From: Alphaproteobacteria bacterium
Lineage (GTDB): Bacteria > Pseudomonadota > Alphaproteobacteria > Caulobacterales > Aquidulcibacteraceae
Reading direction: 5' to 3'
DNA length: 64,000 nt
Assembly: GCA_018971945.1 (NCBI GenBank)
Contig: JAGWZH010000002.1
Location: 503-64,502, forward strand
In this document: piece by piece, positions 19,201 to 57,470 of the stretch
Layout of the letters: every line of letters begins with the position of its first letter
How positions within the stretch are numbered: the stretch's first letter is position 1
Program-made: the position numbers and the translations under genes
The notes under the pieces: model-generated
What the model saw: only the letters and a program-made list of their open reading frames with translations
Told to the model about the DNA's origin: nothing
Databases searched by the model: none

Positions 19201-21159
19201 GCCGTCGCCTGGAGCAATTCGGCCGTGGGCGGGTACGCCCAACCTGTCACCGTCCGCGATCCGGTCGTGGCCGAGCTCTCCCTGCCGCGCTTCCTTGCGC
19301 CCGGCGATGAGGCGCTGGCGGCGCTCACATTGGACAATGTCGATGGCCCCGCCGGCCGCTACACAGTCCGCCTTGCCGCTTCTGGCGCCGCCGCTTTGCC
19401 AAGCCGGCCCTTTGTCTTCGATCTCCGCCCAGGCGGCCAGGCAAGGGTGCTGGCGCCGCTCAACGCCGAAAACCTGGGCTTCGGCGATCTCGCCTTGCGC
19501 CTGGAGGGGCCTCAAGGCTTCGCCCCCATCGACCGCGTCTACCGCATCCAGACCCGAAGCCCCTGGCTGCCCATCGCCGAGGCGGTGGTGACCCAACAGC
19601 GCCCCACCCGCGCCTACACGGTCCCCGCCGACGCTTTGAACGCCTTCCTCCCCGGCGACAGCCAGGCCGTGATCTCTTTCTCCAATCTCAGGGGCCTTGA
19701 TCCCGGCCCCTTGCTCGACAGCCTCTGGCGTTACCCTTATGGCTGCACCGAGCAGATGGCGAGCGTGGCCATGCCTATGCTCTATCTCGAAGAGTTGGCC
19801 GCCGAGATGGGCCGCGCCGAGCGCGCGGGCGTCCGCCGTCGGGTGCAGGAGGCGGTGACTTCCATCCTCGACCGCCAAGGCCAGGATGGCGCCTTCGGCC
19901 TCTGGCGCGCCAACGACAATTACGCTTCGCCCTGGCTCGGCGCCTACGCAGCGGACATGCTGATCCGCGCCCGCGCCCAAGGCTACGCCGTACCGCAGGC
20001 CGCCCTGGATAAGGCCATGAACGCCATGCGCATCATCGCCCGGCCGGACTCTATCGCCTCCGTTGGATACGATTTCGGCGTCCATATCTGGCCTGGCACG
20101 ACGGACTCCGAAGATCTTCTGCGCTCCCGCGCGGCCGCCTATGCTCTTTATGTCATGGCCAAAGCCGGCGCCGGCGACGTCGCCGATTTGCGCTATTTCC
20201 ATGACGTGCGCCTGGCCGGAGAGCCAAGCCCTCTGGCCCGAGCCCAGATCGGCGCGGCCCTGGCGCAGTTCGGCGACCGCGCCCGGGCCCGCAACGCCTT
20301 CCGCATGGCTGAGCAGGCTTTGGGTTACCGCAATATCGGCGACTGGTATCAGACCCCGGTCCGCGATCTTGCGGGCGTCACAGCCTTGGCCGTGGAAGCG
20401 GGCCAGGACGAGCTTGTCGGTCGTCTGACCGCCCGGCTCGAACGCCAGGCGCCTGACCCGGGCCGCATGACCACTCAGGAGCAGGCCTTCATGCTCCTCG
20501 CGGTCAATGCGCTGCAGGCGCAGGGTGAGGTCAATGTCAGCCTGAATGGCCAAGCCGGCGCAGGCCGCCGCCTCACAGCCTCCGCGCCGCGGATCGCCGA
20601 GGGGCTGACCTTCCGGAATGACGGCCAAGCCCCTGTCTGGCGCACCGTCTTGCTGAGCGGGTCGCCGCGCGCGGCCCCCGCGGCGTCGAACCAGGGCTTC
20701 GCCGTTTTCAAGCATGTCTACGCCTTCGACGGCGGCCCCGCGGACCTGCAAAACCTCACCCAGGGCGACCGTCTCGTCATCGTGGTGGGCGGCGAGCCGA
20801 TCGCCGCCCGCACGCACCCCACGCTGCTGGTCGATCTGCTTCCTGCAGGCTTCGAGATCGACACAGTCCTTGGACCGTCGGACGGTCTTGGCAGGCTTGG
20901 TTGGGACGGCGTGCGCCGTTCAGGACCTTTTGCGTTTGCGGGCGAATTGGAAAGCGGCGCTACCGCCGAGGCCCGAGACGACCGCTTCGTCGCCGCCCTC
21001 GATGTCGCCGGAAGGCCGTTCCGCTTCGCTTACGTCGTCCGCGCAGTCACTCCCGGCCGCTTCACAATGCCGGGCGTTGTTGTCGAGGACATGTATAGCC
21101 CCGGCGTCTTTGGCCGCAGCGCATTAGGCCGTGTCCGCATCGCGCCGCGCCCGGGCTGA
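16225..21159 (+). CDS. Alpha-2-macroglobulin family protein (YfhM-like) with intact thioester motif
   Basis: 1644 aa with an N-terminal TM anchor. Thioester CTEQ at 19744-19755 (RYPYGCTEQMASVAM). A PbpC gene lies 3 nt downstream, the classic bacterial A2M pairing. Confidence 0.9.
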   Translation: MNRNVIIAAVVALFVGLWSGMILSRSALGVDAPPLAFAAAGEEGPRGPNAPRAGVRRGEGMAFLRLRLDTDGVNPKACLEFSQPVSRDANLADYIRLEPEASFDVEAADALACIAGLPYAPDREVTVLAGFPAQDGAVTDREERFTLAFGDRPAYVGFSGDGMILPRNEADGIGLETVNVARLAIEVWRVNDRILSQTGLEGGETSQEGSWLYYDVESAGQGSGVRVYEGELDIAGSQNETVTTVFALGAALGAVDPGAYIVKVRDISPGAPRPEDGDASPAAAYRWVLYTDLALQSFRGAQGLDVVVRSLETARPVGGVVLTLIGGDNAELARVRTSREGFARFPAALLEGEGAGRAKMVMAYGSEGDFAVMDLDRPAIDLSERGVDGRRPPGDIDAFLYTDRGVYRTGERVRLVGLIRDEAGRAVQNRRSTLVIYRPNGAEFDRRRLREAQRAGAVAQNIDIARGAQRGVWRAVLEVDGQEAPAGEIAFSVEDFVPQRLRLALAGEESPLLAGESRSLAVDAQFLYGAPGAGLSVEGEARLQVDPTPFQGFDGYRFGRADETFAEQFILLTPTVTDAAGRAALVLGLDDAPDTSLPLRARVTATVSDPGGRPVRQGLAIPVRLSGLYLGVRPRFENDVVRENGAAAFDVIALDPAGDRVAARNVLWRLVEEDWSYDWYLQDGEWRWRRTGRDIPVDGGEIAVGADAPAVVGRDRLRGGAYRLTLTQEATGAETSYRFGAGWGGAASDRDTPDLVTVAAPADPVRPGRNAVIEIRPPYAGQAQIVVATDRVLETRTESVGPEGRTIRLRVDEDWGAGAYVLVTVMTPRDPANLPQPRRAVGVGYIAVDTGARRLEVSLDQPIARTQSRQVLTVPVRVANIPRGETVHLALAAVDQGILQITNFQSPDPAAWYFSRRALGVDLRDDYGRLLNPNLGAPALARSGGDSLGGEGLTTVPQRTVALFSDVVEVGRDGRVDIPLTLPDFNGELRLMAVAWSNSAVGGYAQPVTVRDPVVAELSLPRFLAPGDEALAALTLDNVDGPAGRYTVRLAASGAAALPSRPFVFDLRPGGQARVLAPLNAENLGFGDLALRLEGPQGFAPIDRVYRIQTRSPWLPIAEAVVTQQRPTRAYTVPADALNAFLPGDSQAVISFSNLRGLDPGPLLDSLWRYPYGCTEQMASVAMPMLYLEELAAEMGRAERAGVRRRVQEAVTSILDRQGQDGAFGLWRANDNYASPWLGAYAADMLIRARAQGYAVPQAALDKAMNAMRIIARPDSIASVGYDFGVHIWPGTTDSEDLLRSRAAAYALYVMAKAGAGDVADLRYFHDVRLAGEPSPLARAQIGAALAQFGDRARARNAFRMAEQALGYRNIGDWYQTPVRDLAGVTALAVEAGQDELVGRLTARLERQAPDPGRMTTQEQAFMLLAVNALQAQGEVNVSLNGQAGAGRRLTASAPRIAEGLTFRNDGQAPVWRTVLLSGSPRAAPAASNQGFAVFKHVYAFDGGPADLQNLTQGDRLVIVVGGEPIAARTHPTLLVDLLPAGFEIDTVLGPSDGLGRLGWDGVRRSGPFAFAGELESGATAEARDDRFVAALDVAGRPFRFAYVVRAVTPGRFTMPGVVVEDMYSPGVFGRSALGRVRIAPRPG

Positions 21160-21162
21160 AAC

Positions 21163-23241
21163 ATGCGCCGCGGCCGCTCGCCCCTGTGGACGCCGCTGCC
21201 CGCCACAAAGCGATGGCTGGCGGCGCTCTTGGCCGTGATGGCGTCGCTCTTTGCGCTGGATGTGGCGTTTCCCCCGCCGATAGCCCGCGCCGCAGACACA
21301 AGCCCCGTTGTCGAAGACCGCGAGGGCCGCTGGCTCCGCGGCTTCACCACGGCGGAGGGACGCTGGCGTTTGGCGGCGGATCTCGACCGGGTCGATCCGC
21401 GCTTTGTGAAGGCCCTGATAGAAGTCGAGGACAAGCGCTTCTGGCTGCACCCAGGCGTCGACCCTATCGCTCTGGTCCGCGCCTCGGCCTCCTTCGTGCG
21501 GACGGGGGAGGTCGCCTCCGGCGCCTCCACCATCACCATGCAACTGGCCCGCCTTCTGGAGCCGCGCCCACGCCATCTCGGCTCGAAATTGATCGAGATG
21601 ATCCGGGCCCTGCAGATTGAACGACGCCTCTCCAAGCGCGAAATCCTCGAGGCTTACCTCACCCTTGCCCCCTATGGCGGTAATCTGGAGGGGGTCCGCG
21701 CCGCCTCCCGGGCCTATTTCGACAAAGACCCGACTTGGCTCGATGATGCTGAGATCGCGCTCCTGATTGCGCTGCCGCAGGCCCCAGAAGCCCGCCGGCC
21801 CGATCGCCGCCCCGAGGCCGCCGCCGCGAGCCGTGCCCGCATCCTGCGCCGCCTTGGCGCGCTCGGGTTGCTGGAAGAGAGCCGCGTCGCAGAGGCCCAA
21901 ACGCTGCCCGTGCCGCAAAGGCGCCCGTTTCCGGTCCTGGCCGAGCACTTGGCCTTTCGTCTCGTCGCCGCGCGCCCCGGCCAAAGCGTGATCGCGACCC
22001 CTCTGGATGCAGACCTGCAAAACGCGGTGGAACGCCTCGTCGCCAGGGAGGCCGCGAGATTGGAGCGCGACGCTGGCGCAGCGGTCCTGGTTGTCCACGC
22101 GCCTAGCCGCGAAGTGCGCGCCAGCGTCGGCGGCGCCGGCCGCGCCCGCCCCGGCGGTTGGATCGACATGAGCCAGGCTGTAAGGTCCCCGGGGTCAGCC
22201 TTGAAGCCCTTTATCTACGCGTTGGCCTTCGATTCCGGCCTTGCCGCCCCCGAAACCCTCGCGCGCGATGGGCCGATCCGTTTCTCCGGGTACATGCCGG
22301 AAAATTTCGATCGTCGCTTCCATGGCGATGTGCGCCTTTATGAAGCCTTGCAGCACTCTCTCAATGTTCCCGCTGTGGCGACGCTTGAGCGCATCGGCGC
22401 GGCCTCTTTCGCCGCGGCGCTGCGCAGAGCCTACGCCTCGCCGCGCTTGCCGCCGGGGCCGGATTCCCAGGCAGGCCTTGCATTGGCTTTGGGCGGGGTC
22501 GGCATGACCCTTGAGGATCTCGTCACGCTCTATGCGGCTTTGGCCGATGGTGGCGAGGCGCAGCCGCTGCGGCGGGCCGAGCCCCTTTACGGCCTTCCTC
22601 GTCGTTTCGTGCGTCGAGAAACCGCTGAGGCCGTCCTGAGCATCCTTGCGGGGTCGCCGACGCCAAACGGCCGCGCCCCTGCGGCCTTGAGCGAAAACGC
22701 TCCCATCGTCGCCTATAAGACCGGCACGTCCTATGGCTTCCGCGATGCCTGGGCCTTTGGCGTGTCAGGCGATTGGGTCGTGGGCGTCTGGGTCGGCCGT
22801 CCCGACGGCAGTCCGCGCCCCGGCGCCACTGGCCGCGCCGCTGCGTTGCCCCTTCTGTTTGAGGTCTTCGACGCCATCGGTCCGGCCGCCGGGCGCCCGA
22901 TCGCGCCGATCCTGGCCCCGGAGCCGGCCCCCGCGGCCTTGGCCCGGCTCCAACGGGAAGGGCTTGGCGGGACGCCAGACCAGGGCCCTCGCATCCTTTT
23001 TCCCCCCGACGGCGCGGAAGTGCTCGTCACCGAATTCGGCCCCGAGAGCCGTGGCCTGTCTCTGTCCGCTGCGGGAGGCGAGGGGGCGCTGTCCTGGTTC
23101 GCCGAAGGCTGCCCTGCGAGCATCGAGGCCACCAGCGGCCGCGCCCTATGGCGCCCATCCGGTCCGGGCTTCCATACGCTCAGCGTGATCGACGCCATGG
23201 GCCGGCGCGAAACGGTCCGGGTTCGGATCCGCGACCGATAG
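21163..23241 (+). CDS. pbpC: Penicillin-binding protein 1C
   Basis: Glycosyltransferase motifs EDKRFWLHPGVD and STITMQLAR. Transpeptidase motifs SALKPF (SxxK), SLN and KTGTS. C-terminal PbpC domain. Confidence 0.9.
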   Translation: MRRGRSPLWTPLPATKRWLAALLAVMASLFALDVAFPPPIARAADTSPVVEDREGRWLRGFTTAEGRWRLAADLDRVDPRFVKALIEVEDKRFWLHPGVDPIALVRASASFVRTGEVASGASTITMQLARLLEPRPRHLGSKLIEMIRALQIERRLSKREILEAYLTLAPYGGNLEGVRAASRAYFDKDPTWLDDAEIALLIALPQAPEARRPDRRPEAAAASRARILRRLGALGLLEESRVAEAQTLPVPQRRPFPVLAEHLAFRLVAARPGQSVIATPLDADLQNAVERLVAREAARLERDAGAAVLVVHAPSREVRASVGGAGRARPGGWIDMSQAVRSPGSALKPFIYALAFDSGLAAPETLARDGPIRFSGYMPENFDRRFHGDVRLYEALQHSLNVPAVATLERIGAASFAAALRRAYASPRLPPGPDSQAGLALALGGVGMTLEDLVTLYAALADGGEAQPLRRAEPLYGLPRRFVRRETAEAVLSILAGSPTPNGRAPAALSENAPIVAYKTGTSYGFRDAWAFGVSGDWVVGVWVGRPDGSPRPGATGRAAALPLLFEVFDAIGPAAGRPIAPILAPEPAPAALARLQREGLGGTPDQGPRILFPPDGAEVLVTEFGPESRGLSLSAAGGEGALSWFAEGCPASIEATSGRALWRPSGPGFHTLSVIDAMGRRETVRVRIRDR

Positions 23242-37961: not shown

Positions 37962-38606
37962 ATGCATACCCCCAAGGCCGACATCGAAAGGCCAGGCTGG
38001 CTGGCGCTTTTGCTGGGCTTGACCCTGGCGTGTTTGGGATGGGCGCTATGGTCCTTGGCCCGTCTCGCCGAGGTTCATGCCGAGGCGCCCGTCCTGATCG
38101 TCCATGAACGGGAGGACCTTGCCGCCGCTCTGCGCGCCGCCCCTTTTGCGGGTCCCAGCGCCGATGACGGCAGCCCTCTTGGCGATCCGGTCTGGCTCAT
38201 CGGCCATGTTGGGTGCGCAGGCTGTGACGCCGCCACGGCGGAGGCTTTGCAACAGCTGGATCAAGCGGGCCTCGAAGCGCAAGTTCTGTTTGTGCCGGAC
38301 GCTTATCCCGCGCCCCCTTCGGCCGCCGAACTGGTCGCCGTCGTCGCCCGCACCGGCGAGGCCGAGCATTTCCGCGCCTGGCGCGAGGGGCGCGCCTTGC
38401 CGCCCATGATCACCGACCCCACCGAGGCCGAGGGCTACAGCGAACTCGCCCGCCAAGCCGCCGAGCGCGCGACTGCAGCGCTCGCCGCCAATGGGCTTCA
38501 TGAGCCTTTGCCCGTGCTGATCTGGCGGGTTAACGGCGCCTGGCGCGCGCTCCCGGCCGGTCGCCCCGACGCCGCGGCCGCCGTGCGGCGCGATCTGCGC
38601 TCCTAA
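37962..38606 (+). CDS. Hypothetical membrane-anchored protein with a CxxC motif (thioredoxin/DsbA-like?)
   Basis: N-terminal TM WLALLLGLTLACLGWALWSL. CAGC motif in LIGHVGCAGCDAATAEAL. No confident family assignment. Confidence 0.5.
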   Translation: MHTPKADIERPGWLALLLGLTLACLGWALWSLARLAEVHAEAPVLIVHEREDLAAALRAAPFAGPSADDGSPLGDPVWLIGHVGCAGCDAATAEALQQLDQAGLEAQVLFVPDAYPAPPSAAELVAVVARTGEAEHFRAWREGRALPPMITDPTEAEGYSELARQAAERATAALAANGLHEPLPVLIWRVNGAWRALPAGRPDAAAAVRRDLRS

Positions 38607-38617
38607 GATGACGCCCA

Positions 38618-39739
38618 ATGCCGCGACCGCTCGCTGTTCTTGACGCCTATCGCGCCCGCGTCGCCGAGGGCGGACTTGCGCCTGACCAGGCCCAAGAGGC
38701 GGTCGCCCAGCGCCTCAGCCGGCTGAGCGAGGCCTTGGCCCGCTGGAGCCCCGAGGCATGGCTTGGCAAAGGCGTAAAGCCGCGCGGGCTCTATATCTGG
38801 GGTCCTGTCGGCCGCGGCAAATCTCTTCTGATGGATCTTTTTTTTGAAAGCGTCCCGGTCAGAAGAAAGCTCCGGGTTCACTTCCACGCCTTCATGCTGG
38901 AGGCGCACAAGATCATGCATGAGGTCCGCGCCAAAGGAGGGGAGGGACAAGACAAGGCCATCGCCGCCGTGGCGAAAGCCACCGCCAGGCGGGCTCTGCT
39001 GCTCTGCTTTGACGAGTTCGCCGTGACAGACATCGCCGACGCCGTCATCCTTGGCCGTCTGTTTGAAAAGCTGACGCAGCAGGGCGTGGTCGTCGTCGCC
39101 ACATCCAACCGCGCGCCGCATGACCTCTATAAAAACGGCCTCAACCGCCAGTTATTCTTGCCCTTTATCGCCTTGATCGAGCGCGAGATGGATGTGGTGG
39201 AGTTGGCTGGCCCCCAGGATTACCGTTTGGGCCGTCTCCTCGCCGCCCCGGTCTATTATGCCCCTCTGGGCCCGGCGTCTGAGGAAGCAGCCGACGCCGC
39301 CTTTCGGCGGCTGACCCTTGGAGCCCAGGCGCAATGCGCCGAACTTGATGTCCAGGGCCGCCCCCTCTTTGTCTCCCGCCACGCCGCCGGGGTCGCGCGC
39401 TTCACTTTTGAAGAGCTGTGCGAAAGGCCGATGGGCGCCGCCGACTATCTTGAAATCGCCGAACGGTTTCACACTGTCTTTGTGGAGCATGTCCCCAAAC
39501 TGACGCCATCGATGCGGGAGCAAGCCGCGCGTTTCCGCATCCTGATCGACACGCTCTACGAGGCCAAAACCAAACTGCTCGTCACTGCCGATGCTGAGCC
39601 TGACAGGCTTTATCCGGAAGGTGATCAGAATTTTGAGTTTGAACGCACCGTCAGCCGTTTGATGGAGATGCGGTCCGCGGACTATCTCGCCGCGCCACGA
39701 CGCGACGCCGAATGGCGACGGGGCGTCGTAGACGGATGA
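38618..39739 (+). CDS. zapE: Cell division protein ZapE (AFG1-like ATPase)
   Basis: Walker A GPVGRGKSLLMD, Walker B LLCFDEF, and AFG1 family length and order. Confidence 0.9.
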   Translation: MPRPLAVLDAYRARVAEGGLAPDQAQEAVAQRLSRLSEALARWSPEAWLGKGVKPRGLYIWGPVGRGKSLLMDLFFESVPVRRKLRVHFHAFMLEAHKIMHEVRAKGGEGQDKAIAAVAKATARRALLLCFDEFAVTDIADAVILGRLFEKLTQQGVVVVATSNRAPHDLYKNGLNRQLFLPFIALIEREMDVVELAGPQDYRLGRLLAAPVYYAPLGPASEEAADAAFRRLTLGAQAQCAELDVQGRPLFVSRHAAGVARFTFEELCERPMGAADYLEIAERFHTVFVEHVPKLTPSMREQAARFRILIDTLYEAKTKLLVTADAEPDRLYPEGDQNFEFERTVSRLMEMRSADYLAAPRRDAEWRRGVVDG

Positions 39740-39746
39740 TCCCGCT

Positions 39747-40586
39747 TCAGGCCGCGACGCTCGCCTTCCAATGAGCGTTTCGACGATAAAGCCCCCGCTG
39801 GTCGGCCACGCTCTCAAAAGCGTCGGTCACCCCCGTCGCCGTTTCCCCCTCCCCCAAAAGAAGGAAACCGTCCTCAGGCATGCTCCCAGCCAGGCGCTCC
39901 AGCGTCGATTTTCTGGTTGGTTGGTCGAAAGACACGAGAACATTCCGGCACAAAACCACATCGAACCGTCCGAGCGGGTGGAGGTCATCGAGCAGATTGA
40001 ATCGCTGGAACTGCACCGCTGACCGGATCCGATCGCTGATGCGCCACATCTCGTTCACCTTCTCAAAGTGCTTGACGAGCAGCCTGACGGGCAAGCCCCT
40101 CTGGACCTCGAATTGGCTATAGAGGCCTGATTTCGCCTTCTCCAGAACGCGGTCCGAGATGTCCACCCCGATGATCTCGGCGTTTACGGGGCTTGCTTGC
40201 TCTGCAAGCTCGTCGAGGAGCATCGCAAGGGAGTAGGGCTCTTGACCGCTCGAACAGGCTGCGGAGAGAATCCGCACGGGAGCCATGGGCCCCCTCGAGC
40301 GCAGAAGCGACGGGACGACTGTCTCGCGGAACAGATCAAACAGCGCCTTGTCTCGGAAAAAAAGCGTCTCGCACGTTGTCAGCGCGTCGGTGATCGCCCA
40401 CAGCATCGCTTCATCACGCCGCGACCGCGCCGAAGCCGCCAACTCCTTGAGACTGGCGAAGCCCCCAATGCGCATAAGCGGCGCAAGCTTTGTTTCCAGA
40501 ATATGGGCTCTATCCGCAGTCAGAACGAGGCCTGAGCGCATGCGGACCTCCCGCGCGATGAACGCGAAATCAGCTTCGGGCAACAT
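39747..40586 (-). CDS. cheR: Chemotaxis protein methyltransferase CheR
   Basis: CheR N-domain FAFIAREVRMRSGL...TLFFRD and SAM domain RILSAACSSGQEPYSLAMLL...DVVLCRNVLVSF. SD-like GGAAAGG lies upstream of ATG 40586. Confidence 0.9.
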   Translation of the reverse strand: MLPEADFAFIAREVRMRSGLVLTADRAHILETKLAPLMRIGGFASLKELAASARSRRDEAMLWAITDALTTCETLFFRDKALFDLFRETVVPSLLRSRGPMAPVRILSAACSSGQEPYSLAMLLDELAEQASPVNAEIIGVDISDRVLEKAKSGLYSQFEVQRGLPVRLLVKHFEKVNEMWRISDRIRSAVQFQRFNLLDDLHPLGRFDVVLCRNVLVSFDQPTRKSTLERLAGSMPEDGFLLLGEGETATGVTDAFESVADQRGLYRRNAHWKASVAA

Positions 40587-40780
40587 CTTCGAGGCCTTTC
40601 CATTGGGCGGGCGCGCAAATGGCAGCCGCGCCCCTTATCGAGGGTCTTAGGACGTGCGCGAGGCCCGCCTTGGCGACAGCCGCGGGGGCCTCACCGAAGA
40701 GACGAAAACCGCTTTCCTCCAGAGCCAGGGGCTTGGCTGGAGGCGAGGGGCTGAGGCGCGAAGCAAAGCCCACCTGACCC

Positions 40781-41146
40781 TCAGATCAAGCCGACTTCGG
40801 AGAATTTCGACTGCAGGATGTCGCCGTCGAACGGTTTCATGATGTATTCGTTCGCTCCGGCCTTGAGGGCTTCGGAAATGCGCTGCGGGTCGTTTTCGGT
40901 TGTGCAGAACACCACGATGGGCCTGCCCCCGCCGTTTTCCCGACGCAGCTGCCGCAGGAAGTCGATGCCGTTCATGGATGGCATCGTCCAGTCCAGAAGG
41001 ATCGCGTCCGGCATGGTCCGCCTGCACGCATGCAGGGCCTCGACGCCATCGGCGGCCTCCTCGATCTGAAAACGCAAGTCTTCCAGAATACGGCGGGCGA
41101 CTTTCCGGATCACACGGCTGTCATCGACCACAAGGCAGCTTTTCAT
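40781..41146 (-). CDS. cheY: CheY-like single-domain response regulator
   Basis: CLVVDDS, ILLDWTMPSMNG (phospho-Asp context), VVFCTTE and YIMKPF. 121 aa. Confidence 0.9.
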   Translation of the reverse strand: MKSCLVVDDSRVIRKVARRILEDLRFQIEEAADGVEALHACRRTMPDAILLDWTMPSMNGIDFLRQLRRENGGGRPIVVFCTTENDPQRISEALKAGANEYIMKPFDGDILQSKFSEVGLI

Positions 41147-41240
41147 GGCTTTCAGGCCCCTTCACGCCGCTCGCGAGCCCGCCCCGAACCGGGCGAGGAG
41201 ATTGCGCGTCGCGGACATGTCAGTCATGAGACCCTTCCCC

Positions 41241-41248
41241 ATGGTTAA
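41241..41248 (-). promoter_or_regulatory. TTAACCAT (CtrA half-site-type 8-mer) about 95 nt upstream of cheY
   Basis: The plus strand reads atggttaa, which is TTAACCAT on the coding strand of cheY. It sits in a locally low-GC stretch of the cheA-cheY gap. Motif match only. Confidence 0.3.
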
Positions 41249-41439
41249 CGCTGAGCAAAACTGAGGCGAAACCGTTTGGAAACGCCTCGATATTTCCGAA
41301 ACGGCAAAAACGGCCGAGGCAAACCACCGGCAAAGGGCGTGACCAAGCCCTGGCCCCCATGGCCTCAGCGGCCTGCGAAGAAGGCGGCCGGCGGGCGAGC
41401 CCTTGAAGAGGGTCCTGTCGGCGGCGCCCAATGTCGAGC

Positions 41440-43578
41440 CTAGGCCGCGCGTTCCTTCGACTGTATGGCGCCGTCAAGGGCCGCAAGCAGTCCTTCTTGA
41501 TCCGTTTTGCGCACCGCGTCCGCGAACGCTCCGACTGGGGATGCGCCCTGCGTGAGCCCGAGCCGCGCCGCGTCCCGCCAAGCAGGGTCCTGCTCCAGTT
41601 GCGCGGCGAAAGCGTCCGCCCCTGCGGGGTCGGCGTCTATATCGGCAAGAATCGCGTCGAAAATCTCCCCGGCGTCCTTCAGGCGCAGCGCCTCTGAAAA
41701 CTCTGTCGCGTGCACAGCGTTGTAGCCAGCCTCTTCCAGAAGTGGGGTCAGGAGCGCGCGAGTGAAATGATTATGGTCGACAAGAAGGATCCTGCCTTTT
41801 GAGCCGGGGCTTGCGGGCTTCTGGTCCGCGCATGCATGACGCGCCGGATTCAAATAATGATTGAGGTCGACGATGTCGACGAGGTCCCCGTCGATCGCAA
41901 CAGTTCCAAGAACACCAAGCCTCGCAGAAGAAAGATCGATGCTCAAAGGCTCTGTGACGATGTCCAGGACCTCGTCCACCGCCAACCCGACCCGCCCATG
42001 CTCCCCTTCAAACACAAGCACGGGCTGAACGCCTTCTGCGCGGAAGGCGCTGTCCCCTCCAAGATGGGTGAGGCGCATCAGCGCGCCGTCATAAGCGGCC
42101 AGCACCTGTCCGTTCACCCGTTTCAGGGCCGCCGTCGAGGTCTGCGTCACCCCGGTCGCGAGGGCCAGCGGCACGCCCATGAGCGCGGCATCGCCGGCCC
42201 GAACCAGGATCAGCCCGGTCCCATCCTTCATCGAGGCCTTGTGGATCGGCGGCGTCGCGGGGATCATAATGCGGAAACTGGCGCCTTGGCCGTCAATGCT
42301 TGTCAGCGCCACGTCACCCCCGAGCGCATCGATCTGGGCGCGCACCACATCCATGCCCACGCCCCGGCCGGACAGGGTCGTCACATGGTCCGCCGTGGAA
42401 AAGCCGGGAACGAAAATCAATCGGTGCGCGAGAGCCTCTGGCAGGGCCGACGCTTCCGCATCCGTCATCAACCCCTTTTCCGCCGCCTTTCGCCTGATTT
42501 GGGTCGTGTTCAGTCCCGCCCCATCGTCGGCGATCTCAATGATGATATGCCCATCCTCCTGCGTCGCCGACAGCCTCAAGACGCCCTGCGCGGGTTTTCC
42601 CTTCGCCAGTCGCTCCCCAGGCGACTCGATCCCGTGGTCGCAGGCGTTGCGCACCATGTGGACAAGAGGGGCCATGAGATGGTCAAGCACGCTTCGGTCA
42701 AGCTCGAGATCTTCGCCTTCCAGGCGCAGTTCAATGCTCTTGCCGAGATCGAAAGCAACGTTCCTGACCAGCCGCTTCAGCCTCCGAGAGGCTGAGCCGA
42801 AGGACTGCATCCGAGCCTGTTTGACGGTCGCCTGAAGTTCTGCGGTGATGTGCGCCAAATCTTGCAACGGCGCCTTCAAGGCCGAAAGCTCAAAAACACG
42901 GCTCGCACGCACGAGCTGATCATGCGTGAGCGCGAGTTTTGAAGCCATGGCCATGATCTGATCGAGCTGAGCGATGCTGACCCGAACTGTCAGGGTCGAA
43001 GGGGCTCGCCCGCCCTTGAGGCCGTGCTCCTTGAAAGGCGCAGTCATGGCGATCCCAGCTTGGGCGGGGGAGAGGCGGCTTTCCTCAGCCCGTGCGGGAG
43101 CCTCCGTCGCATGAGCAGAGGCCGGCGCCTGATGGGGCGCGTCCTGTGCGCCGTTCGCTCCGTAGATGCGCTGAGCCTTGGGCGCAACAAGGCGGCAAGC
43201 TTCGCCTTCAACCGCAGCATAAAGCGCCTCGATCATCGTGCCGTCGTCCTCGTCCGGTTCTCTCCCTGTCGCCGCGAGGTTTGCAGTCATCGCTCTGATC
43301 CGGTCGATGGATCTGAGAATGAGGGCGAGCGTCTCTGGCGTGACGGGCAGATCCCCCTCCCGGACCTCGTCGAGAAGGGTTTCGCAGGCGTGCGCCAGAG
43401 CCGGGAGCCGCCTCAGTCCCAAAAACCCGCCCGTGCCTTTGATCGTATGCATCAGGCGGAAAGTCGCGTTGAGGGCCGCCTGGTCGGAGGGCTGCTGTTC
43501 GAACCGCGCTAGCGCGTCGTCCACAAGATCAAGCATGTCGACGGTTTCGCTCAGAAACTCGGCGAGAAGATCATCCAT
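41440..43578 (-). CDS. cheA: CheA-type histidine kinase with C-terminal receiver-like domain (HPt-dimerisation-HATPase-CheW-REC)
   Basis: P1 HPt FRLMHTIKGTGGFLGL. N box HMVRNACDHGIE, G1 DDGAGL, G2 SGRGVGMDVV. CheW-like P5 (GLILVRAG...VDIVDLNHYL). C-terminal REC-like ILLVDHNH...ILADIDAD...GLTQG...VRK. Start set at MDDLLAEF (ATG 43578). Confidence 0.9.
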   Translation of the reverse strand: MDDLLAEFLSETVDMLDLVDDALARFEQQPSDQAALNATFRLMHTIKGTGGFLGLRRLPALAHACETLLDEVREGDLPVTPETLALILRSIDRIRAMTANLAATGREPDEDDGTMIEALYAAVEGEACRLVAPKAQRIYGANGAQDAPHQAPASAHATEAPARAEESRLSPAQAGIAMTAPFKEHGLKGGRAPSTLTVRVSIAQLDQIMAMASKLALTHDQLVRASRVFELSALKAPLQDLAHITAELQATVKQARMQSFGSASRRLKRLVRNVAFDLGKSIELRLEGEDLELDRSVLDHLMAPLVHMVRNACDHGIESPGERLAKGKPAQGVLRLSATQEDGHIIIEIADDGAGLNTTQIRRKAAEKGLMTDAEASALPEALAHRLIFVPGFSTADHVTTLSGRGVGMDVVRAQIDALGGDVALTSIDGQGASFRIMIPATPPIHKASMKDGTGLILVRAGDAALMGVPLALATGVTQTSTAALKRVNGQVLAAYDGALMRLTHLGGDSAFRAEGVQPVLVFEGEHGRVGLAVDEVLDIVTEPLSIDLSSARLGVLGTVAIDGDLVDIVDLNHYLNPARHACADQKPASPGSKGRILLVDHNHFTRALLTPLLEEAGYNAVHATEFSEALRLKDAGEIFDAILADIDADPAGADAFAAQLEQDPAWRDAARLGLTQGASPVGAFADAVRKTDQEGLLAALDGAIQSKERAA

Positions 43579-43662
43579 GGTTCCGGCCCCAGCGAACCGC
43601 CGCCCCGCCACCGATGCGCAAGCGATCACCGAAACCTTCCTCCGAGCGGAGTTTCCGGCCCG

Positions 43663-44307
43663 TTAACGAGACTTAATATCTGCTGTGGTCTGGAAGGCTG
43701 GGCTCTTGGCCACGAGTTCGATGCGCTCTGGCGCCTCTCGGGCCAAAAGCGTCACGCCAGCGGCCTGGGCGATAAGGGCTGTGTAATAGGGCTGGACATT
43801 ATGGCCCTTAAAGCCGTCGCCCGGCTCTTCCTGCCGAAGGGCCTGCTGGGTCTCCGCCTTCAACATCGCCCGCTGGCCCTGGGCGACGATCCGAACCTCG
43901 CCCTTGCCGTCGGCCTCGACGGTCAAAGTTCCGCCCCGCGGCAGGCAATCCGCTCCGATCAGCAGAAGGTTCATGATCACACGCGTCGCCGCCCGCGGCG
44001 CCGTCATCTCCGGCGCAGCCCACACAAGCGTCGGCTTCAAAGTGGAGAAAAGCTTCTCCGCCACCGCGCGGCCTTCATCCAAAGGACCATCGCCTTCCAC
44101 GAAGGCGCTCGCGAAGGCGAAGCGGAAATAATCGAGCTTCGCCCACATATTCACCGCCCCGTGTTCCAGGAGGCTCAACGCATCTGCGTTTTTGCCGTCG
44201 CTGGCCTGCTGGGCCATGTCCAGCCCCTGGATGATGGCGCTGACCGGCCCCAAGAGGTCGTGACACATGCGCGAAGCCATCAGGGCGGTGAGCTTGGGCC
44301 CTTCCAT
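43663..44307 (-). CDS. ChpT-like histidine phosphotransferase (HPTransfase family)
   Basis: N-terminal LMASRMCHDLLGPVSAIIQGLDM matches the ChpT signature (Caulobacter ChpT: LAARLCHDFISPASAIVSGLDLL). A pseudo-CA domain follows (VIMNLLLIGADCLPRGGTLTV). 214 aa. SD GAGG lies upstream. Confidence 0.8.
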   Translation of the reverse strand: MEGPKLTALMASRMCHDLLGPVSAIIQGLDMAQQASDGKNADALSLLEHGAVNMWAKLDYFRFAFASAFVEGDGPLDEGRAVAEKLFSTLKPTLVWAAPEMTAPRAATRVIMNLLLIGADCLPRGGTLTVEADGKGEVRIVAQGQRAMLKAETQQALRQEEPGDGFKGHNVQPYYTALIAQAAGVTLLAREAPERIELVAKSPAFQTTADIKSR

Positions 44308-44389
44308 GGAGCGACCTCGTGAGATGCTGCGGTGAGGCCGATATCCTTGTCCGATTCGCGCAGCGCGCTAAGGAAGGCCTTGCAGCGGA

Positions 44390-44662
44390 TCACGCCTCGC
44401 CCGAGGCGCCATCGGAGGGATCGCGCGGGGGCCTGTCGTCAAAGCCGTGTCGGGCGCTGTAGAATGACAGGCCCATCAAAAGCCCCGCAAGCGCGAGCGT
44501 CACGACGCTGCCGAGGGCCATGATGAACCATCCGAAGGCGGAGATCTCCACCTCCAGGTCCTGATAGGCATGATAGATCCCGAGCCCGACAGCGCAGGCG
44601 AGCCCGCCTAGAGCCAAAAGCGCCAGGATAGGGGGGGCCCAAGACGGAGGGCGTGGCGCCAT
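44390..44662 (-). CDS. Small two-TM membrane protein, translationally coupled to ydbL
   Basis: High GC3. TM segments PILALLALGGLACAVGLGIY and FGWFIMALGSVVTLALAGLLMGL. Its ATG overlaps the ydbL TAA by 1 nt (TAATG). Confidence 0.65.
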   Translation of the reverse strand: MAPRPPSWAPPILALLALGGLACAVGLGIYHAYQDLEVEISAFGWFIMALGSVVTLALAGLLMGLSFYSARHGFDDRPPRDPSDGASGEA

Positions 44663-45099
44663 TATCGGCAGAAGCTCGGCGTCGCCACCGGCGCGCTCTC
44701 AGTCCTTTGCCGCCATGTCCCGCCTTCGTCGCGGTACCATTCCCCCAATGCGACCCGGCTTGAAAAAAGCTGGCAGGCGGTCGCAGCGGCCATCTCCGCT
44801 GGCGTCACGGTGACCCCATCCACCGACACGCGCGCGGCCCGATCGAAATACACGCGTCGACGCTCGCCATTGATCTGCGCGACACGTCGCCGGAGGTCCG
44901 CATCGGCCCGCGCCTCGTCGCGAATGCCTAACAGACCCACCTCTGTGCCGTTGGCCTGTTCGCCCACGATGCCTGAGGACCGCGCCGCCTCCACCACATC
45001 GTCCGCAAGCGCGGATGCAGGAGTCGCCAGCGCCAAGGCGAAAAGCGCCGCCGCCGCCATCATGGCCCGCGATGAGAGGAAAGAAGTCTTGTCGCTCAT
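44662..45099 (-). CDS. ydbL: YdbL family periplasmic protein (DUF1318)
   Basis: Signal peptide, then SSGIVGEQANG...LRRRVAQINGERRRVY...GEWYRDEGGTWRQR. The same pattern occurs in E. coli YdbL (GRVGE...INAERKASY...GEYVQGINGKWVRK). Confidence 0.8.
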   Translation of the reverse strand: MSDKTSFLSSRAMMAAAALFALALATPASALADDVVEAARSSGIVGEQANGTEVGLLGIRDEARADADLRRRVAQINGERRRVYFDRAARVSVDGVTVTPAEMAAATACQLFSSRVALGEWYRDEGGTWRQRTESAPVATPSFCR

Positions 45100-50417: not shown

Positions 50418-51113
50418 TCAGGCGACCGCAGTCTCCGCTCCCGGGTCGCGCAGCACATAACCGCGACCCCAGACGGTCTCGATATGGTGTTCGCCGCCCG
50501 TAGCCCCTGCAAGTTTCTTGCGGAGCTTGCAGATGAACACGTCGATAATCTTCAGTTCGGGCTCGTCCATCCCGCCATAAAGATGGTTCAGGAACATTTC
50601 TTTCGTCAGCGTGGTGCCCTTCCGCAAGGACAGAAGCTCCAACATCTGATACTCTTTTCCAGTGAGATGGACGCGCTGGTTGCGGACCTCGACCGTCTTG
50701 GCGTCGAGATTCACGACGATGTCCCCGGTCTTGATGACAGAATGCGCGTGCCCCTTGGACCGACGGACGATCGCATTGATCCGCGCCACCAACTCATCTT
50801 TGTTGAAAGGCTTGGTCATATAGTCGTCTGCGCCGAAGCCGAGACCACGCACCTTGGTGTCGATATCGGCCGTACCCGACAGGATCAGGATGGGGGTATT
50901 CACCCGCGCCACCCGCAACTGCTTCAACACGTCCATGCCGTGCATATCCGGCAAAGACAGGTCAAGCAGGATGATGTCGTAGTCATAGAGCTTGCCGAGG
51001 TCGATGCCTTCCTCGCCCAAGTCGGTCGAATAGATGTTGAAGCCCTCCGACTTCAGCATCATTTCGATGCCTTGAGCCGTGGCGCTGTCGTCTTCGATCA
51101 GCAAGACCCGCAT
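50418..51113 (-). CDS. ctrA: Cell cycle response regulator CtrA
   Basis: Long blocks match Caulobacter CtrA as recalled from memory: [121 protein letters not shown] and [16 protein letters not shown]. Confidence 0.97.
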
Positions 51114-51333: not shown

Positions 51334-52680
51334 ATGGTGCCGTTTGACCGTGAAGGAAAACCCTTGCGCCCCCTGGCCCGTCTCGCCCGCAATATCGAAG
51401 CCTTAACGCCCTTCGAATTCGAGGGGCGCGTCAGGGGCGTCAATGGTCTTGTCATAGAGGCGAGCGGCCCTCTTGAGGCGTTGGTGCTGGGCGCGCGGGC
51501 GCTGATCGAGGGCGAGAGGCCTTTGCGTGGCGAAATCGTCGGCTTTCGCGATGGCCGGGCCCTCCTCATTCCTTACGACGCGGCTGAAAAGATCCGGCCC
51601 GGCGCGCGCGTCCGTTTCGCTGCCGAGCGTCAGACCGTCGCGCCTTGTGCGGCCTGGTTGGGTCAGGTGCTCGACGCGTTCGGCGAACCTCTCGATGGAC
51701 GCCGTTTGCCGCAGGGGCCGACCGCGCGTCCCATCATCGCTCCGCCGCCCACAGCCCATGACCGCGCCCGGGTCGGCGCGCGAATGGATGTCGGCGTCCG
51801 GGCCATCAATCTCTTCGCCGCGCTGTGTCGCGGCCAACGCATGGGCGTCTTTTCCGGCTCTGGGGTCGGGAAGTCCGTCCTGCTTTCAATGCTCGCCAGG
51901 GCCGCTGCCGCCGACATCATTGTGATCGGATTGGTCGGAGAGCGCGGACGAGAGGTGAACGAATTCATTGAAGACATTTTGGGTCCGGAGGGTCGCCGCC
52001 GCTCCGTGGTGGTCGTGGCGACTTCGGACGAAACAGCGGCAAAGCGCCGGATGGCGCCCCATACCGCCTGCGCCATCGCCGAACATTTCCGAGACGAGGG
52101 CCTCGATGTATTGCTGCTGCTCGACAGCGTGACCCGCTTCGCCATGGCCCAGCGCGAGATCGGGCTCGCCGCCGGCGAGCCTCCGGCCACAAAAGCCTAC
52201 ACGCCTTCGGTCTTCGCTGAACTGCCGCGCCTTCTCGAAAGGGCAGGGCCAGGTCATTTCGGCCGCAAGGGATCGATCACTGGCCTGTTCACGGTGCTGG
52301 TCGATGGCGACGACCATAATGAGCCCATCGCCGACGCAGTTCGCGGCATTCTTGACGGCCATATCGTGATGGAGCGCAGCATCGCCGAAAACGGACGCTA
52401 CCCCGCCATCAATATCTTGAAATCAGTCTCTAGATTGATGCCTGATTGCCACACCGAAGACCAGAATGCGCTCGTGCGTCGGGCGCGGGGGCTGATGGCG
52501 GCCTATGCGCAAATGGAGGATTTGATCCGTATTGGCGCTTATAAGCCTGGATCTGACGCAGACATCGATGAAGCGATCCGTCTTCGGAGCGCATTGGAAG
52601 CGGTTTTGAACCAGGGGAAAGACGAGTTCTCCAACATAGAAGAGAGCTTTGAACGCCTTCGCGCAGCTCTTGAGGGATGA
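51334..52680 (+). CDS. fliI: Flagellum-specific ATP synthase FliI
   Basis: Walker A GSGVGKSVLLSML, Walker B VLLLLDSVTRFA, and an F1-ATPase-like fold. fliJ follows. Confidence 0.95.
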   Translation: MVPFDREGKPLRPLARLARNIEALTPFEFEGRVRGVNGLVIEASGPLEALVLGARALIEGERPLRGEIVGFRDGRALLIPYDAAEKIRPGARVRFAAERQTVAPCAAWLGQVLDAFGEPLDGRRLPQGPTARPIIAPPPTAHDRARVGARMDVGVRAINLFAALCRGQRMGVFSGSGVGKSVLLSMLARAAAADIIVIGLVGERGREVNEFIEDILGPEGRRRSVVVVATSDETAAKRRMAPHTACAIAEHFRDEGLDVLLLLDSVTRFAMAQREIGLAAGEPPATKAYTPSVFAELPRLLERAGPGHFGRKGSITGLFTVLVDGDDHNEPIADAVRGILDGHIVMERSIAENGRYPAINILKSVSRLMPDCHTEDQNALVRRARGLMAAYAQMEDLIRIGAYKPGSDADIDEAIRLRSALEAVLNQGKDEFSNIEESFERLRAALEG

Positions 52681-56105: not shown

Positions 56106-57470
56106 TTAGGCTGCATCAAAAGCCTGTCCGTTCGGCGGAGGCGGCACCGCCACGCCCGCATCCGAATAGGCCTTGAGCTTGTTACGCAGCGTACGGATTG
56201 AAATGCCGAGTATCATCGCCGCATGGGTTCGGTTTCCCAGGCAATGGCTGAGGGTCTCTAGGATCAGATCCTGCTCAACCTCCGAAACGGTTCGGCCAAC
56301 GAGCGCCCGCGCGGCGTCCGCTGCATCAGCCGCGCGCGCCGCCAGGTCATGGCCACGCGTCCCCACCGGAGCGCCGTCAGGCGTTCTGATCGCCTCGGGT
56401 CCGATATCAGGCCCCGAAGCCAGGAGCACCGCCCGGTGCATCGTGTTTTCAAGCTCGCGAACATTGCCGCGCCAGGGATGAGCCAGCAGTTGCTGCAGGG
56501 CTTCCTCATTGAGGCGCAACTGCGATCGTCCGTTCGCCTTCGCGTATTTCGCAACGAAGTGCGCCGCAAGCGCGGCGATGTCGTTTCGGCGTTCTCTCAG
56601 TGGCGGAATCCGAAGATTGACCACATTCAGCCGGAACAACAGGTCTTCTCGGAACTCCCCGTCGCGCACCGCCTGCGCAAGATCGCGATTGGACGTGGCG
56701 ACGACGCGGATATTCACCGGAACAGGCTTGGTCCCGCCCACGCGGTCGATGACCCGTTCCTGCAGGGCCCGCAGGAGCTTTGACTGGAGCCGCAGTTCCA
56801 TCTCCGAGATTTCATCAAGCAAGAGCGTGCCGCCATCGGCCTCCTCAAACTTGCCGATCCGTCTCGCGACAGCGCCGGTGAAAGCGTTTTTCTCGTGGCC
56901 GAAGAGTTCTGATTCCAGGAGATTCTCCGGGATGGCCGCACAATTGATCGCGATAAAGGGGCCGGCCTTGCGTTTGGATTTTTGGTGCACATAACGAGCC
57001 ATCACCTCTTTGCCGACGCCGCTTTCCCCTGTGATCAGGATCGAGGCGTCTGACGAAGCGGTTTGGTCAGCGAGCGAAATCACCTGCCGCATCGCGGGAT
57101 CCTCCGCGATCACGGTTGTCTGATCGCAGGCGACCGCTGCGAGGATCGCGCCAATCAACTCCGCGTCCGGAGGCAGCGAGATGAACTCTCGCGCGCCAGC
57201 CCGGATGGCCCGAGCCGCCAAGGTCGGATCGACGCCTACGCCCGCCGCCACCACTGGCGCGACGATGTGCTCCGCCTCATTGGCAGCGATCAGCGCTGCG
57301 ATGTCGAGCCGCGCGTCGACCATCAAGAGATCTGCGCCGCGACCAGCCCGCAGGGCCGCCGTCGCCTGTTCGATCGTATCGACATGGGCGACCTTCGCCC
57401 CCTGGTCCAGCGCGATCTTGGTGGCGGCGGAAATCTGCCCCCCCATCGGTCCGACGATAAGCAGCCGCAT
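56106..57470 (-). CDS. flbD: Sigma-54-dependent flagellar transcriptional regulator FlbD
   Basis: Receiver-like N-terminus, AAA+ domain (GESGVGKE, the GAFTGA-type loop EKNAFTGAV, and ELENTMHRAVL), and a C-terminal Fis-type HTH (AAMILGISIRTLRNKLK). It occupies the same position as Caulobacter flbD, after fliN. Confidence 0.9.
   Translation of the reverse strand: MRLLIVGPMGGQISAATKIALDQGAKVAHVDTIEQATAALRAGRGADLLMVDARLDIAALIAANEAEHIVAPVVAAGVGVDPTLAARAIRAGAREFISLPPDAELIGAILAAVACDQTTVIAEDPAMRQVISLADQTASSDASILITGESGVGKEVMARYVHQKSKRKAGPFIAINCAAIPENLLESELFGHEKNAFTGAVARRIGKFEEADGGTLLLDEISEMELRLQSKLLRALQERVIDRVGGTKPVPVNIRVVATSNRDLAQAVRDGEFREDLLFRLNVVNLRIPPLRERRNDIAALAAHFVAKYAKANGRSQLRLNEEALQQLLAHPWRGNVRELENTMHRAVLLASGPDIGPEAIRTPDGAPVGTRGHDLAARAADAADAARALVGRTVSEVEQDLILETLSHCLGNRTHAAMILGISIRTLRNKLKAYSDAGVAVPPPPNGQAFDAA

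Follow-up and report, generated by a model that had tools for sequence, protein, structure and literature searches.

Why should the gene for a ChpT-type phosphotransferase stand in line with genes for chemotaxis proteins? The question is raised by a stretch of 64,000 nucleotides (nt) from an Alphaproteobacteria bacterium (Caulobacterales; Aquidulcibacteraceae; assembly GCA_018971945.1, contig JAGWZH010000002.1, positions 503 to 64,502), which we call the window and in which chpT is followed by genes for a CheA with a C-terminal receiver-like (REC-like) domain, a CheY, and a CheR. An earlier note, made from the DNA alone, had proposed a His-Asp-His-Asp relay in which the CheA feeds ChpT and a CheR-modified sensory input reaches the CtrA circuit. 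We arrive at a different reading, to which we assign a probability of about 0.6: a canonical chpT lies beside a reductively evolving che operon of class F5, within an ancient ctrA/flagellar/che neighborhood, and the adjacency reflects shared ancestry and not a dedicated relay. The four co-directional open reading frames (ORFs) were confirmed on the minus strand, and Pfam matches over them agreed with the domain inventory of the earlier note:

43663..44307, minus strand: chpT, histidine phosphotransferase of 214 amino acids (aa), PF10090
41440..43578, minus strand: cheA, reduced F5-class kinase of 712 aa, ordered as P1, shortened P2-like linker, P3, P4, deleted first CheW domain, second CheW-like domain, REC-like domain
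40781..41146, minus strand: cheY, 121 aa, PF00072 (101 bits)
39747..40586, minus strand: cheR, 279 aa, PF01739 (182 bits)

A Pfam scan of ∼44 window ORFs, among them most of the large candidates, gave no match to cheW, cheB, or a methyl-accepting chemotaxis protein (MCP). Searching the window by tblastn with CheW and CheB of relatives returned only a cheB remnant and receiver-domain similarity to cheY, and there was no match to the MCP signaling domain, for which the query was a Tsr fragment used without a positive control. The absence of these genes from the 64 kb, as described before, was borne out by both searches; of the complete chemosensory set (MCP, CheW, CheA, CheY, CheR, and CheB) the window lacks MCP, cheW, and cheB.

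The locus derives from an F5 che operon by deletion

The genomic contexts of ChpT homologues came from look-ups of exact proteins and from scans of genomes and of metagenomes. In L006, a Caulobacterales metagenome-assembled genome from Lake Mendota, and in L086, whose ChpT proteins are 79-91% identical to that of the window, the same flanking genes enclose chpT-cheA-cheW-cheY-cheB-cheR, with a CheA of 882-892 aa. The full order, with a CheA of ∼880-900 aa, was also found in the more distant loci L001, L007, L075, and L081 and in Hirschia litorea (L179); in all of these relatives, it stands in the context M23-YdbH-lipoprotein-DUF1318-chpT. The CheA proteins of these relatives have the domains Hpt-dimerization-HATPase-CheW-CheW-REC, which is the F5 architecture. 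By blastn, L006 and the window are collinear from M23 to the acyltransferase region except for the P1-P3 linker of cheA, which is divergent and 87 nt shorter in the window, and three gaps:

42214..42247, minus strand: scar of the first CheW (P5) domain of cheA, in frame, with ∼450 nt lost (34 nt versus 486 nt in L006)
41147..41439, minus strand: cheA-cheY spacer of 293 nt with the leftover of cheW (160 nt versus 347 nt in L006)
40587..40780, minus strand: cheY-cheR spacer of 194 nt with the cheB scar at 40682-40744 (63 nt versus 993 nt in L006)

The last ∼100 nt of the cheA-cheY spacer align with the 3' end of L006 cheW, and positions 41262-41421 have no alignable counterpart. A 3' remnant of cheB (∼100 nt) at 40573-40686 was recognized by tblastn with the C-terminus of L006 CheB (55% identity over 38 aa, E = 2e-5). 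The P5 deletion is common to the window and a sister species, L096, with 92% DNA identity in chpT, and the reduced gene order was present in every same-population contig shown (23 contigs read, 99.5% identity). Among the best 120 homologue clusters in 5.8 billion proteins, a short CheA of the 712-aa type occurred in the window cluster only. Hence, the window holds a deletion derivative of an F5 che operon: the first CheW domain, the greater part of cheW, and almost all of cheB are gone, and the four-gene set is not a purpose-built module.

chpT and che genes are neighbors in many relatives

An adjacency unique to this strain would have spoken against the proposal of the earlier note; we found the opposite, a strongly conserved chpT/che order. 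When counting loci with at least 1.5 kb of sequence downstream of chpT, the Caulobacterales-type set contained 8 loci with the full operon, 1 of the window type, 6 with a mini-CheA, and 55 with chpT-cheY-cheR and no CheA, and a che gene followed chpT in 70 of the 71 loci. The mini-CheAs are proteins of 335-380 aa with Hpt-like and HATPase-like regions, encoded between chpT and cheY (L051:8729-9796, L052:5243-6292, L067:2518-3525, L078:8645-9766, L079:5208-6353, and L004:8675-9781). The phospho-His is lost in all but the L004 protein and the G2 box is lost in the L051 group, and the mini-CheAs look like pseudo-kinases maintained as ORFs.

We then placed these states on a neighbor-joining tree of concatenated ChpT, CheY, and CheR from the 71 taxa with all three markers, rooted on L002. 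The window is nested in the group with the full operon, and the other clade contains the mini-CheA and CheA-less forms. By Fitch parsimony, 4 state changes from a full ancestor were required. Tree and parsimony together indicate that cheW and cheB were lost at least 2 times independently, with cheY and cheR kept each time.

The adjacency extends beyond this set. The root taxon L002, with a ChpT ∼35% identical to that of the window, has the order chpT-cheA(REC)-cheW-cheY-cheB-cheR-ctrA-fliI. A metagenome scan of the L002-type lineage yielded 34 informative loci, in which the next gene after chpT was cheA (28 loci) or a cheY-like gene (4 loci); the remaining 2 had no che gene, and ctrA was their next recognizable gene. 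A che gene followed chpT in 32 of the 34 loci of this lineage, where ctrA often closes the cluster, and in ∼97% of the 105 informative loci over both lineages. A search from the CheA side found chpT directly upstream of an F5 cheA in Hirschia litorea and a Phreatobacter sp. A 2025 study notes that flagellar genes accompany ctrA, cckA, and chpT in Rhodospirillum rubrum and that the flagellar cluster includes che genes (PMC12363192). In Caulobacter crescentus, ChpT has the locus tag CC3470 (PMC3433190), and CheYIV and CheR are CC3471 and CC3472 (PMC2529317).

In part of the distant ChpT lineage (metagenome loci L131, L144, L152, L173, and L178), chpT is followed by a gene for a single-domain receiver ∼40% identical to the window CheY; where the contig is long enough (L131, L152, and L178), ctrA comes next on the opposite strand. 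This arrangement appears to be one more end point of reduction in that neighborhood.

ChpT, CheY, and CheR

The product of the gene at 43663-44307, previously called ChpT-like from its His motif, has a significant match to PF10090 (HPTransfase) in Pfam (105.5 bits, E = 2e-30). Its H-box consists of C15-H16-D17...P21, with the codon of phospho-His16 at 44260-44262 and A24 at position His+8, and C15, H16, D17, and P21 were invariant in an alignment of 15 ChpT homologues. H16 and P21 are the phospho-His and the kink Pro at +5 that characterize the ChpT family; in C. crescentus ChpT, the corresponding DHp-like H-box has His33 and, five residues on, the kink Pro38 (PMC3433190). The solved ChpT structures 4QPJ, 4FMT, and 4FPP align over almost the full length of the protein (E = 1e-28 to 8e-26), and coverage of residues 2-203 (4QPJ, E = 1e-28; 4FMT, E = 6e-26) includes the C-terminal pseudo-ATPase domain. 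Against the NCBIfam ChpT equivalog models (NF046025 is a ChpT family id) the protein scored 154.9 bits (cutoff 225) for Caulobacter and 139.6 bits (cutoff 240) for Brucella/Rhizobium. Both alignments are full length, and we therefore attribute the missed cutoffs to lineage divergence. The 64 kb hold one ChpT-like gene, and among the best 80 matches no assembly had two loci. The gene is thus predicted from its sequence and position to be the canonical chpT, a syntenic ortholog near ctrA that belongs to the same trio as Caulobacter CC3470-3472.

CheY has the active-site residues D8, D9, D52, T82, and K104 and aligns with the CheYs of the full operons. It is 75-87% identical in more than 70 relatives, and the alpha1 helix is SRVIRKVARRILE throughout, with or without a cheA next to cheY. 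CheR is recognized by its PF01739 domain, with CheR_N just below the cutoff (23.5 bits, cutoff 27); it is 80% identical to the L006 protein, and the ratio of nonsynonymous to synonymous substitution rates (dN/dS) is 0.105.

The remaining CheA

The most likely start of cheA is the ATG at 43578 (MDDLLAEFL...), since this N-terminus is common to all homologues, giving a protein of 712 aa rather than the 729-aa ORF. Of the gap of 33-84 nt between chpT and cheA given in the earlier note, the upper value is favored, and 33 nt would apply only with a GTG start at 43629. The domains and the spacer are as follows:

43579..43662, minus strand: chpT-cheA spacer, 84 nt (33 nt with the upstream GTG at 43629 as start)
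43291..43572, minus strand: P1 (Hpt) domain, phospho-His44 in MHTIKG, codon 43447-43449
42823-42990, minus strand: P3 dimerization domain (Pfam)
42253-42669, minus strand: P4 kinase domain (Pfam)
41809..42213, minus strand: second CheW-like domain, retained and divergent (Pfam CheW, 18.4 bits, cutoff 23.5)
41464..41799, minus strand: REC-like domain with D601-H602, D646 (codon 41641-41643), T676, and K691

Over the ORF at 41440-43629, Hpt (57 bits), H-kinase_dim (27.6 bits), and HATPase_c (54.6 bits) scored above the Pfam thresholds, and CheW (18.4 versus 23.5) and Response_reg (17.5 versus 30.2) scored below. The N box (HMVRNACDHG), G1 box (DDGAGL), F box (GFST), and G2 box (GRGVGMD) are all intact, and the Hpt, dimerization, and HATPase_c domains expected of an F5 CheA are present. 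The duplicated CheW (P5) domain of that class is missing: there is a single CheW-like region below the cutoff, and the first copy is deleted. What had been called the P5 domain is CheW-like, as claimed, but represents the second of two ancestral CheW-like domains. Two CheW domains are present in 99% of F5 CheAs, and a CheW (P5) domain is present in 100% of CheAs (Berry, Andrianova and Zhulin, bioRxiv 10.1101/2023.09.19.558490). Because P5 and CheW are lost, the usual receptor/CheR-dependent signal cannot reach the window kinase.

The REC-like tail aligns with the canonical REC domain of the L002 CheA. It keeps D646, T676, and K691, but the second metal-binding Asp is replaced by a His (H602); T676 and K691 are spaced by 15 residues versus 22 in CheY, which indicates that the alpha4 segment is absent. 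In a census of 119 CheA homologues, the receiver had the phospho-acceptor Asp in 118, the Lys in 119, and Ser/Thr in 117, and the second acidic Asp in only 63. The best NCBIfam receiver match of the tail was the CckA receiver, which was weak (31 bits). A C-terminal receiver is also present in the F5 CheAs of Azospirillum and Azorhizobium, and a phosphate-sink role has been reported for such receivers (bioRxiv 10.1101/2023.09.19.558490); the domain is a class-wide feature of F5 CheAs, not special to the window locus. We rejected the idea that the window receiver is degenerate junk, because its phospho-site residues are family-invariant and the domain is under strong purifying selection.

Selection on the reduced locus

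When comparing the window with L096, both of which carry the reduced form, cheA had a dN/dS of 0.35, significantly below 1 (p = 3e-12), and chpT a dN/dS of 0.06 (range 0.05-0.06). The value was 0.085 for DUF1318 between the window and L095, a contig of the same sister species, and 0.089 for cheA between L006 and L086, both with the full operon. Within CheA, the comparison with the sister species gave 0.35 for P4; the dN/dS of the REC-like domain was 0.08. The whole protein is 60% identical between the window and L006 versus 86% between the two full-cluster genomes, and the domains differ as follows:

P1: 61% between window and L006; 92% between L006 and L086
P3: 51% between window and L006; 94% between L006 and L086
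P4: 67% between window and L006; 92% between L006 and L086
CheW-like 2: 49% between window and L006; 81% between L006 and L086
REC-like: 83% between window and L006; 85% between L006 and L086

Single-nucleotide polymorphisms (SNPs) in the population point in the same direction, with 6 nonsynonymous and 1 synonymous in cheA versus 9 and 20 in neighboring genes, ctrA left out (Fisher p = 0.013). From the dN/dS values, the domain identities, and the population SNPs we conclude that constraint on the kinase core is relaxed, not absent. ChpT, CheY, CheR, and the receiver-like tail of CheA are under strong constraint.

Proposed reading: a canonical chpT beside a decaying operon

In the reading that we favor, chpT stands directly upstream of an F5 cheA-cheW-cheY-cheB-cheR operon as a result of ancient, conserved gene order. 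This operon is evolving reductively in the window species and its sister, and the three deletions took away the parts for receptor-array coupling and receptor demethylation. The remaining CheA, presumably uncoupled from receptors, may still autophosphorylate at His44 and pass phosphate back and forth with its own receiver and CheY, and could serve as a basal kinase, as a phosphate sink, or as both. CheY and CheR would have as their main partners chemosensory proteins whose genes lie outside the window. ChpT would remain the phosphate shuttle that links CckA with CtrA and CpdR. Shared ancestry would then account for the adjacency, probably along with joint regulation of motility genes and the CtrA pathway.

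Three observations weigh against this reading. The cheA ORF is intact in two lineages at a synonymous divergence (dS) of ∼0.36, with dN/dS below 1 and its catalytic motifs kept, which argues that cheA is not simply dying. Constraint on the REC-like domain is as strong as that on the receivers of full-length relatives (83% identity, dN/dS 0.08), which shows some retained function. Finally, the near-universal che gene after chpT and the invariance of the CheY alpha1 helix in loci without CheA could reflect a functional link between ChpT and Che proteins instead of inertia.

Alternative explanations

The last observation leads to the alternative that fares best, although we still consider it unlikely: chpT-cheY-cheR would be the conserved unit, ChpT and CheY would exchange phosphate, with ChpT as donor or sink, and the F5 CheA would be an optional second input. 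Such an exchange would tie CckA/CtrA signaling to the flagellar motor or to receptor methylation. It would explain why cheY-cheR directly follows chpT without a CheA in 55 of the 71 Caulobacterales-type loci, a trio also seen in Caulobacter and Phenylobacterium, why two independent reductions spared exactly cheY and cheR, and why CheY is 75-87% identical with an alpha1 docking helix that does not vary with the presence of a cognate CheA. Moreover, the deletion of CC3471 in Caulobacter is among the strains with altered morphology in Skerker 2005, Fig. 3H (PMC1233412). The persistence of chpT-cheY-cheR is fitted better by an exchange between ChpT and CheY than by a relay from CheA.

Several points speak against ChpT-CheY exchange. 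Biondi et al. reportedly profiled Caulobacter ChpT against all response regulators in 2006 and found only CtrA and CpdR as preferred targets, with which the exchange conflicts. The contact map of the CckA receiver and ChpT has a small Ala/Ser helix-helix contact that is conserved through the CckA-ChpT-CtrA relay (PMC9981736), and our manual alignment to it placed Phe605 of the CheA receiver, Val12 of CheY, and Ala11 of the window CtrA at that contact. CheY has Val12 where CckA-Rec, CtrA, and CpdR carry Ala/Ser (PMC9981736; manual alignment), and its basic alpha1 helix is of the ordinary CheY type. CheY could also be served by further CheAs encoded in the genome. The gaps between chpT and the che genes measure 60-300 nt, whereas che genes overlap or are at most 50 nt apart. 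In addition, the whole M23-YdbH-DUF1318-chpT-che-AFG1 region keeps its order, and synteny alone is therefore weak evidence.

A broader version, in which ChpT is functionally wired to F5 chemosensory proteins across the Alphaproteobacteria via the alpha4-less CheA receiver, the invariant CheY, or both, seems to us rather improbable. If it were true, phosphate could flow between the chemosensory kinase and the CtrA circuit, and the window would be informative in that the parts for receptor coupling are gone, yet P1, the kinase, the receiver, CheY, and ChpT are kept and the receiver is the most constrained part of CheA.

It is more doubtful still that cheA is dead and on its way to loss, leaving a module without kinase function. 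The accelerated divergence (60% identity to L006 versus 86% between full-cluster genomes), the nonsynonymous excess of 6 to 1 in the polymorphism, the score below threshold for a domain that is present in 100% of CheAs (Berry et al., bioRxiv 10.1101/2023.09.19.558490), and the later stages of decay seen in relatives all fit this explanation. Against it stand an uninterrupted ORF of 2.1 kb in the window and in same-population contigs, 463 intact codons at the start of the gene in the sister species (dS ∼0.36), a dN/dS (0.35) significantly lower than 1 (p = 3e-12), the preservation of His44 and of the N, G1, F, and G2 boxes, and strong purifying selection on the receiver tail.

Least probable of all, and in our view very improbable, is the relay of the earlier note, in which phosphate would pass from CheA to its own receiver, to His16 of ChpT, and on to CtrA, CpdR, or CheY, so that a chemosensory-type kinase would feed into the cell-cycle circuit. 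It can draw on the position of chpT directly 5' of an F5 CheA-REC gene in distant alphaproteobacterial lineages, found from both the ChpT and the CheA sides, on the near-invariant Asp, Lys, and Ser/Thr of the receiver across the family, on the rank of the receiver as the most conserved CheA domain in the window, on the CckA receiver as its top, weak NCBIfam match, and on a precedent for transfer from a CheA-REC hybrid to a kinase-like protein, CheA3/CheS3 in Rhodospirillum centenum (PMC3868531). But the receiver is a feature of the F5 class with a reported phosphate-sink role (bioRxiv 10.1101/2023.09.19.558490), scores below the Pfam threshold, has H602 for the second metal-binding Asp and no alpha4, and places Phe605 at the Ala-Ala contact position of CckA-ChpT-CtrA (manual alignment); the window kinase lacks P5 and CheW and its core is under relaxed selection; and CheA is absent, or a mini-protein without the His, in most relatives with chpT. 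A transfer from the CheA receiver to ChpT is not supported, in that such a receiver is typical of the class, most relatives can dispense with CheA, and the kinase core is relaxed; nor is a CheR-modified sensory input, because the three deletions remove the receptor coupling that such an input needs.

The surrounding genes

The window has the gene order AFG1 / cheR-cheY-cheA-chpT / hypothetical gene-DUF1318-lipoprotein-YdbH / M23 / ctrA / fliI, fliJ, flhG-like, flhA, flbD-like, fliG, fliF ... flgE, flgD. The context genes nearest to the subject are as follows:

50418..51113, minus strand: ctrA, 6 kb from chpT
51334-52680, plus strand: fliI, in the flagellar cluster beyond ctrA
between 53101 and 63913, minus strand: flhG-like, flhA, flbD-like, fliG, fliF, flgE, and flgD, in the flagellar cluster

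The location of ctrA 6 kb from the module, as described before, was confirmed at 50418-51113. The N-terminus of the window CtrA is near-identical to that of Caulobacter CtrA. The 64-kb window has no exact CtrA box of the form TTAA-N7-TTAA, and sites with one mismatch are at chance level. A TTAA-N6-TTAA, one base short of the CtrA-box spacing, lies across the chpT stop codon (43663-43676). Scanning 39500-44800 for promoters and terminators gave counts near the shuffle expectation, with nothing inside the chpT-cheA spacer.

One population contig that is 99.5% identical to the window (L090, ENA ERZ27272102) has genes for a KefB-like protein, an aminotransferase IV, and a sulfotransferase upstream of ctrA, not fliI, fliJ, and flhA. 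When L090:1-3300 was compared with window positions 50994-51113, 25 of the 27 ctrA SNPs fell within the first 120 nt, a pattern left either by recombination with its breakpoint in ctrA or by chimeric assembly.

The flagellar cluster includes a gene for a sigma-54 activator (FlbD-like, 56106-57470) whose N-terminal ∼120 residues have no receiver-domain match. Beyond AFG1, an ORF at 37962-38606 encodes a conserved hypothetical protein of 214 aa with no Pfam match and has the same place, between the AFG1-like ATPase and acyltransferase genes, in L086. At window positions 16225-23241, a gene for a bacterial alpha-2-macroglobulin (1644 aa) is directly followed by one for a PBP1C-type transglycosylase/transpeptidase, a known pairing.

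What the locus adds

The locus documents the decay of an F5 operon in which P5, CheW, and CheB go first and CheY and CheR are kept, and the stable end state of this decay is the chpT-cheY-cheR trio as in Caulobacter. ChpT, F5 operons, and the Caulobacter trio are already known; the window adds the reduced CheA variant and a view of the stepwise decay of the operon. The linkage of chpT, che, ctrA, and flagellar genes fits motility control as the ancestral role of the CtrA pathway. The earlier note knew of no described ChpT-Che module, and our literature searches likewise found none; the chpT-che pattern has apparently not been studied functionally. We found no paper that treats the adjacency functionally, and we therefore regard the pattern as a modest, testable lead and not as a new system. 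Phosphate exchange of ChpT with the neighboring CheY or CheA receiver, if true, would connect chemosensing to cell-cycle control.

Comparison with known systems

The ancestral operon next to chpT shares the architecture and the order cheA-cheW-cheY-cheB-cheR with known F5 operons such as Che1 of Azospirillum brasilense and the operon of the Azorhizobium caulinodans CheA, and the CheA, CheY, and CheR of the window are direct descendants. The window differs in that it lacks the first CheW domain, cheW, cheB, and a nearby MCP and in that the kinase core is relaxed.

Among CheA-receiver hybrids, the CheAY phosphate sinks of Helicobacter and Campylobacter and the CheA3-CheS3 relay of Rhodospirillum centenum likewise have a C-terminal receiver with a phospho-acceptor Asp. 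A role as a sink would tolerate the loss of receptor coupling. Unlike these, the window receiver, known here from its sequence, has a single residue of the acidic pair and lacks alpha4.

With the CckA-ChpT-CtrA/CpdR relay of Caulobacter (CC3470, PDB 4FMT and 4FPP) and Brucella (PDB 4QPJ), the window ChpT shares the phospho-His, the Pro at +5, the Ala at +8, and the C-terminal domain of PF10090. There is no difference in the ChpT sequence itself; the NCBIfam score of 155 versus 225 is expected for a different family within the order.

The trio of C. crescentus (CC3470-CC3471-CC3472, adjacency and orientation taken from the consecutive locus tags alone) and of Phenylobacterium zucineum (PHZ_c0297/0298) has the order chpT-cheY-cheR, which more relatives show than any other state (55 loci). 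The cheY and cheR genes of P. zucineum are 2 nt apart, like those of the 55 loci. In contrast to the Caulobacter trio, the window keeps a 712-aa CheA between chpT and cheY, together with the scars of the deletions.

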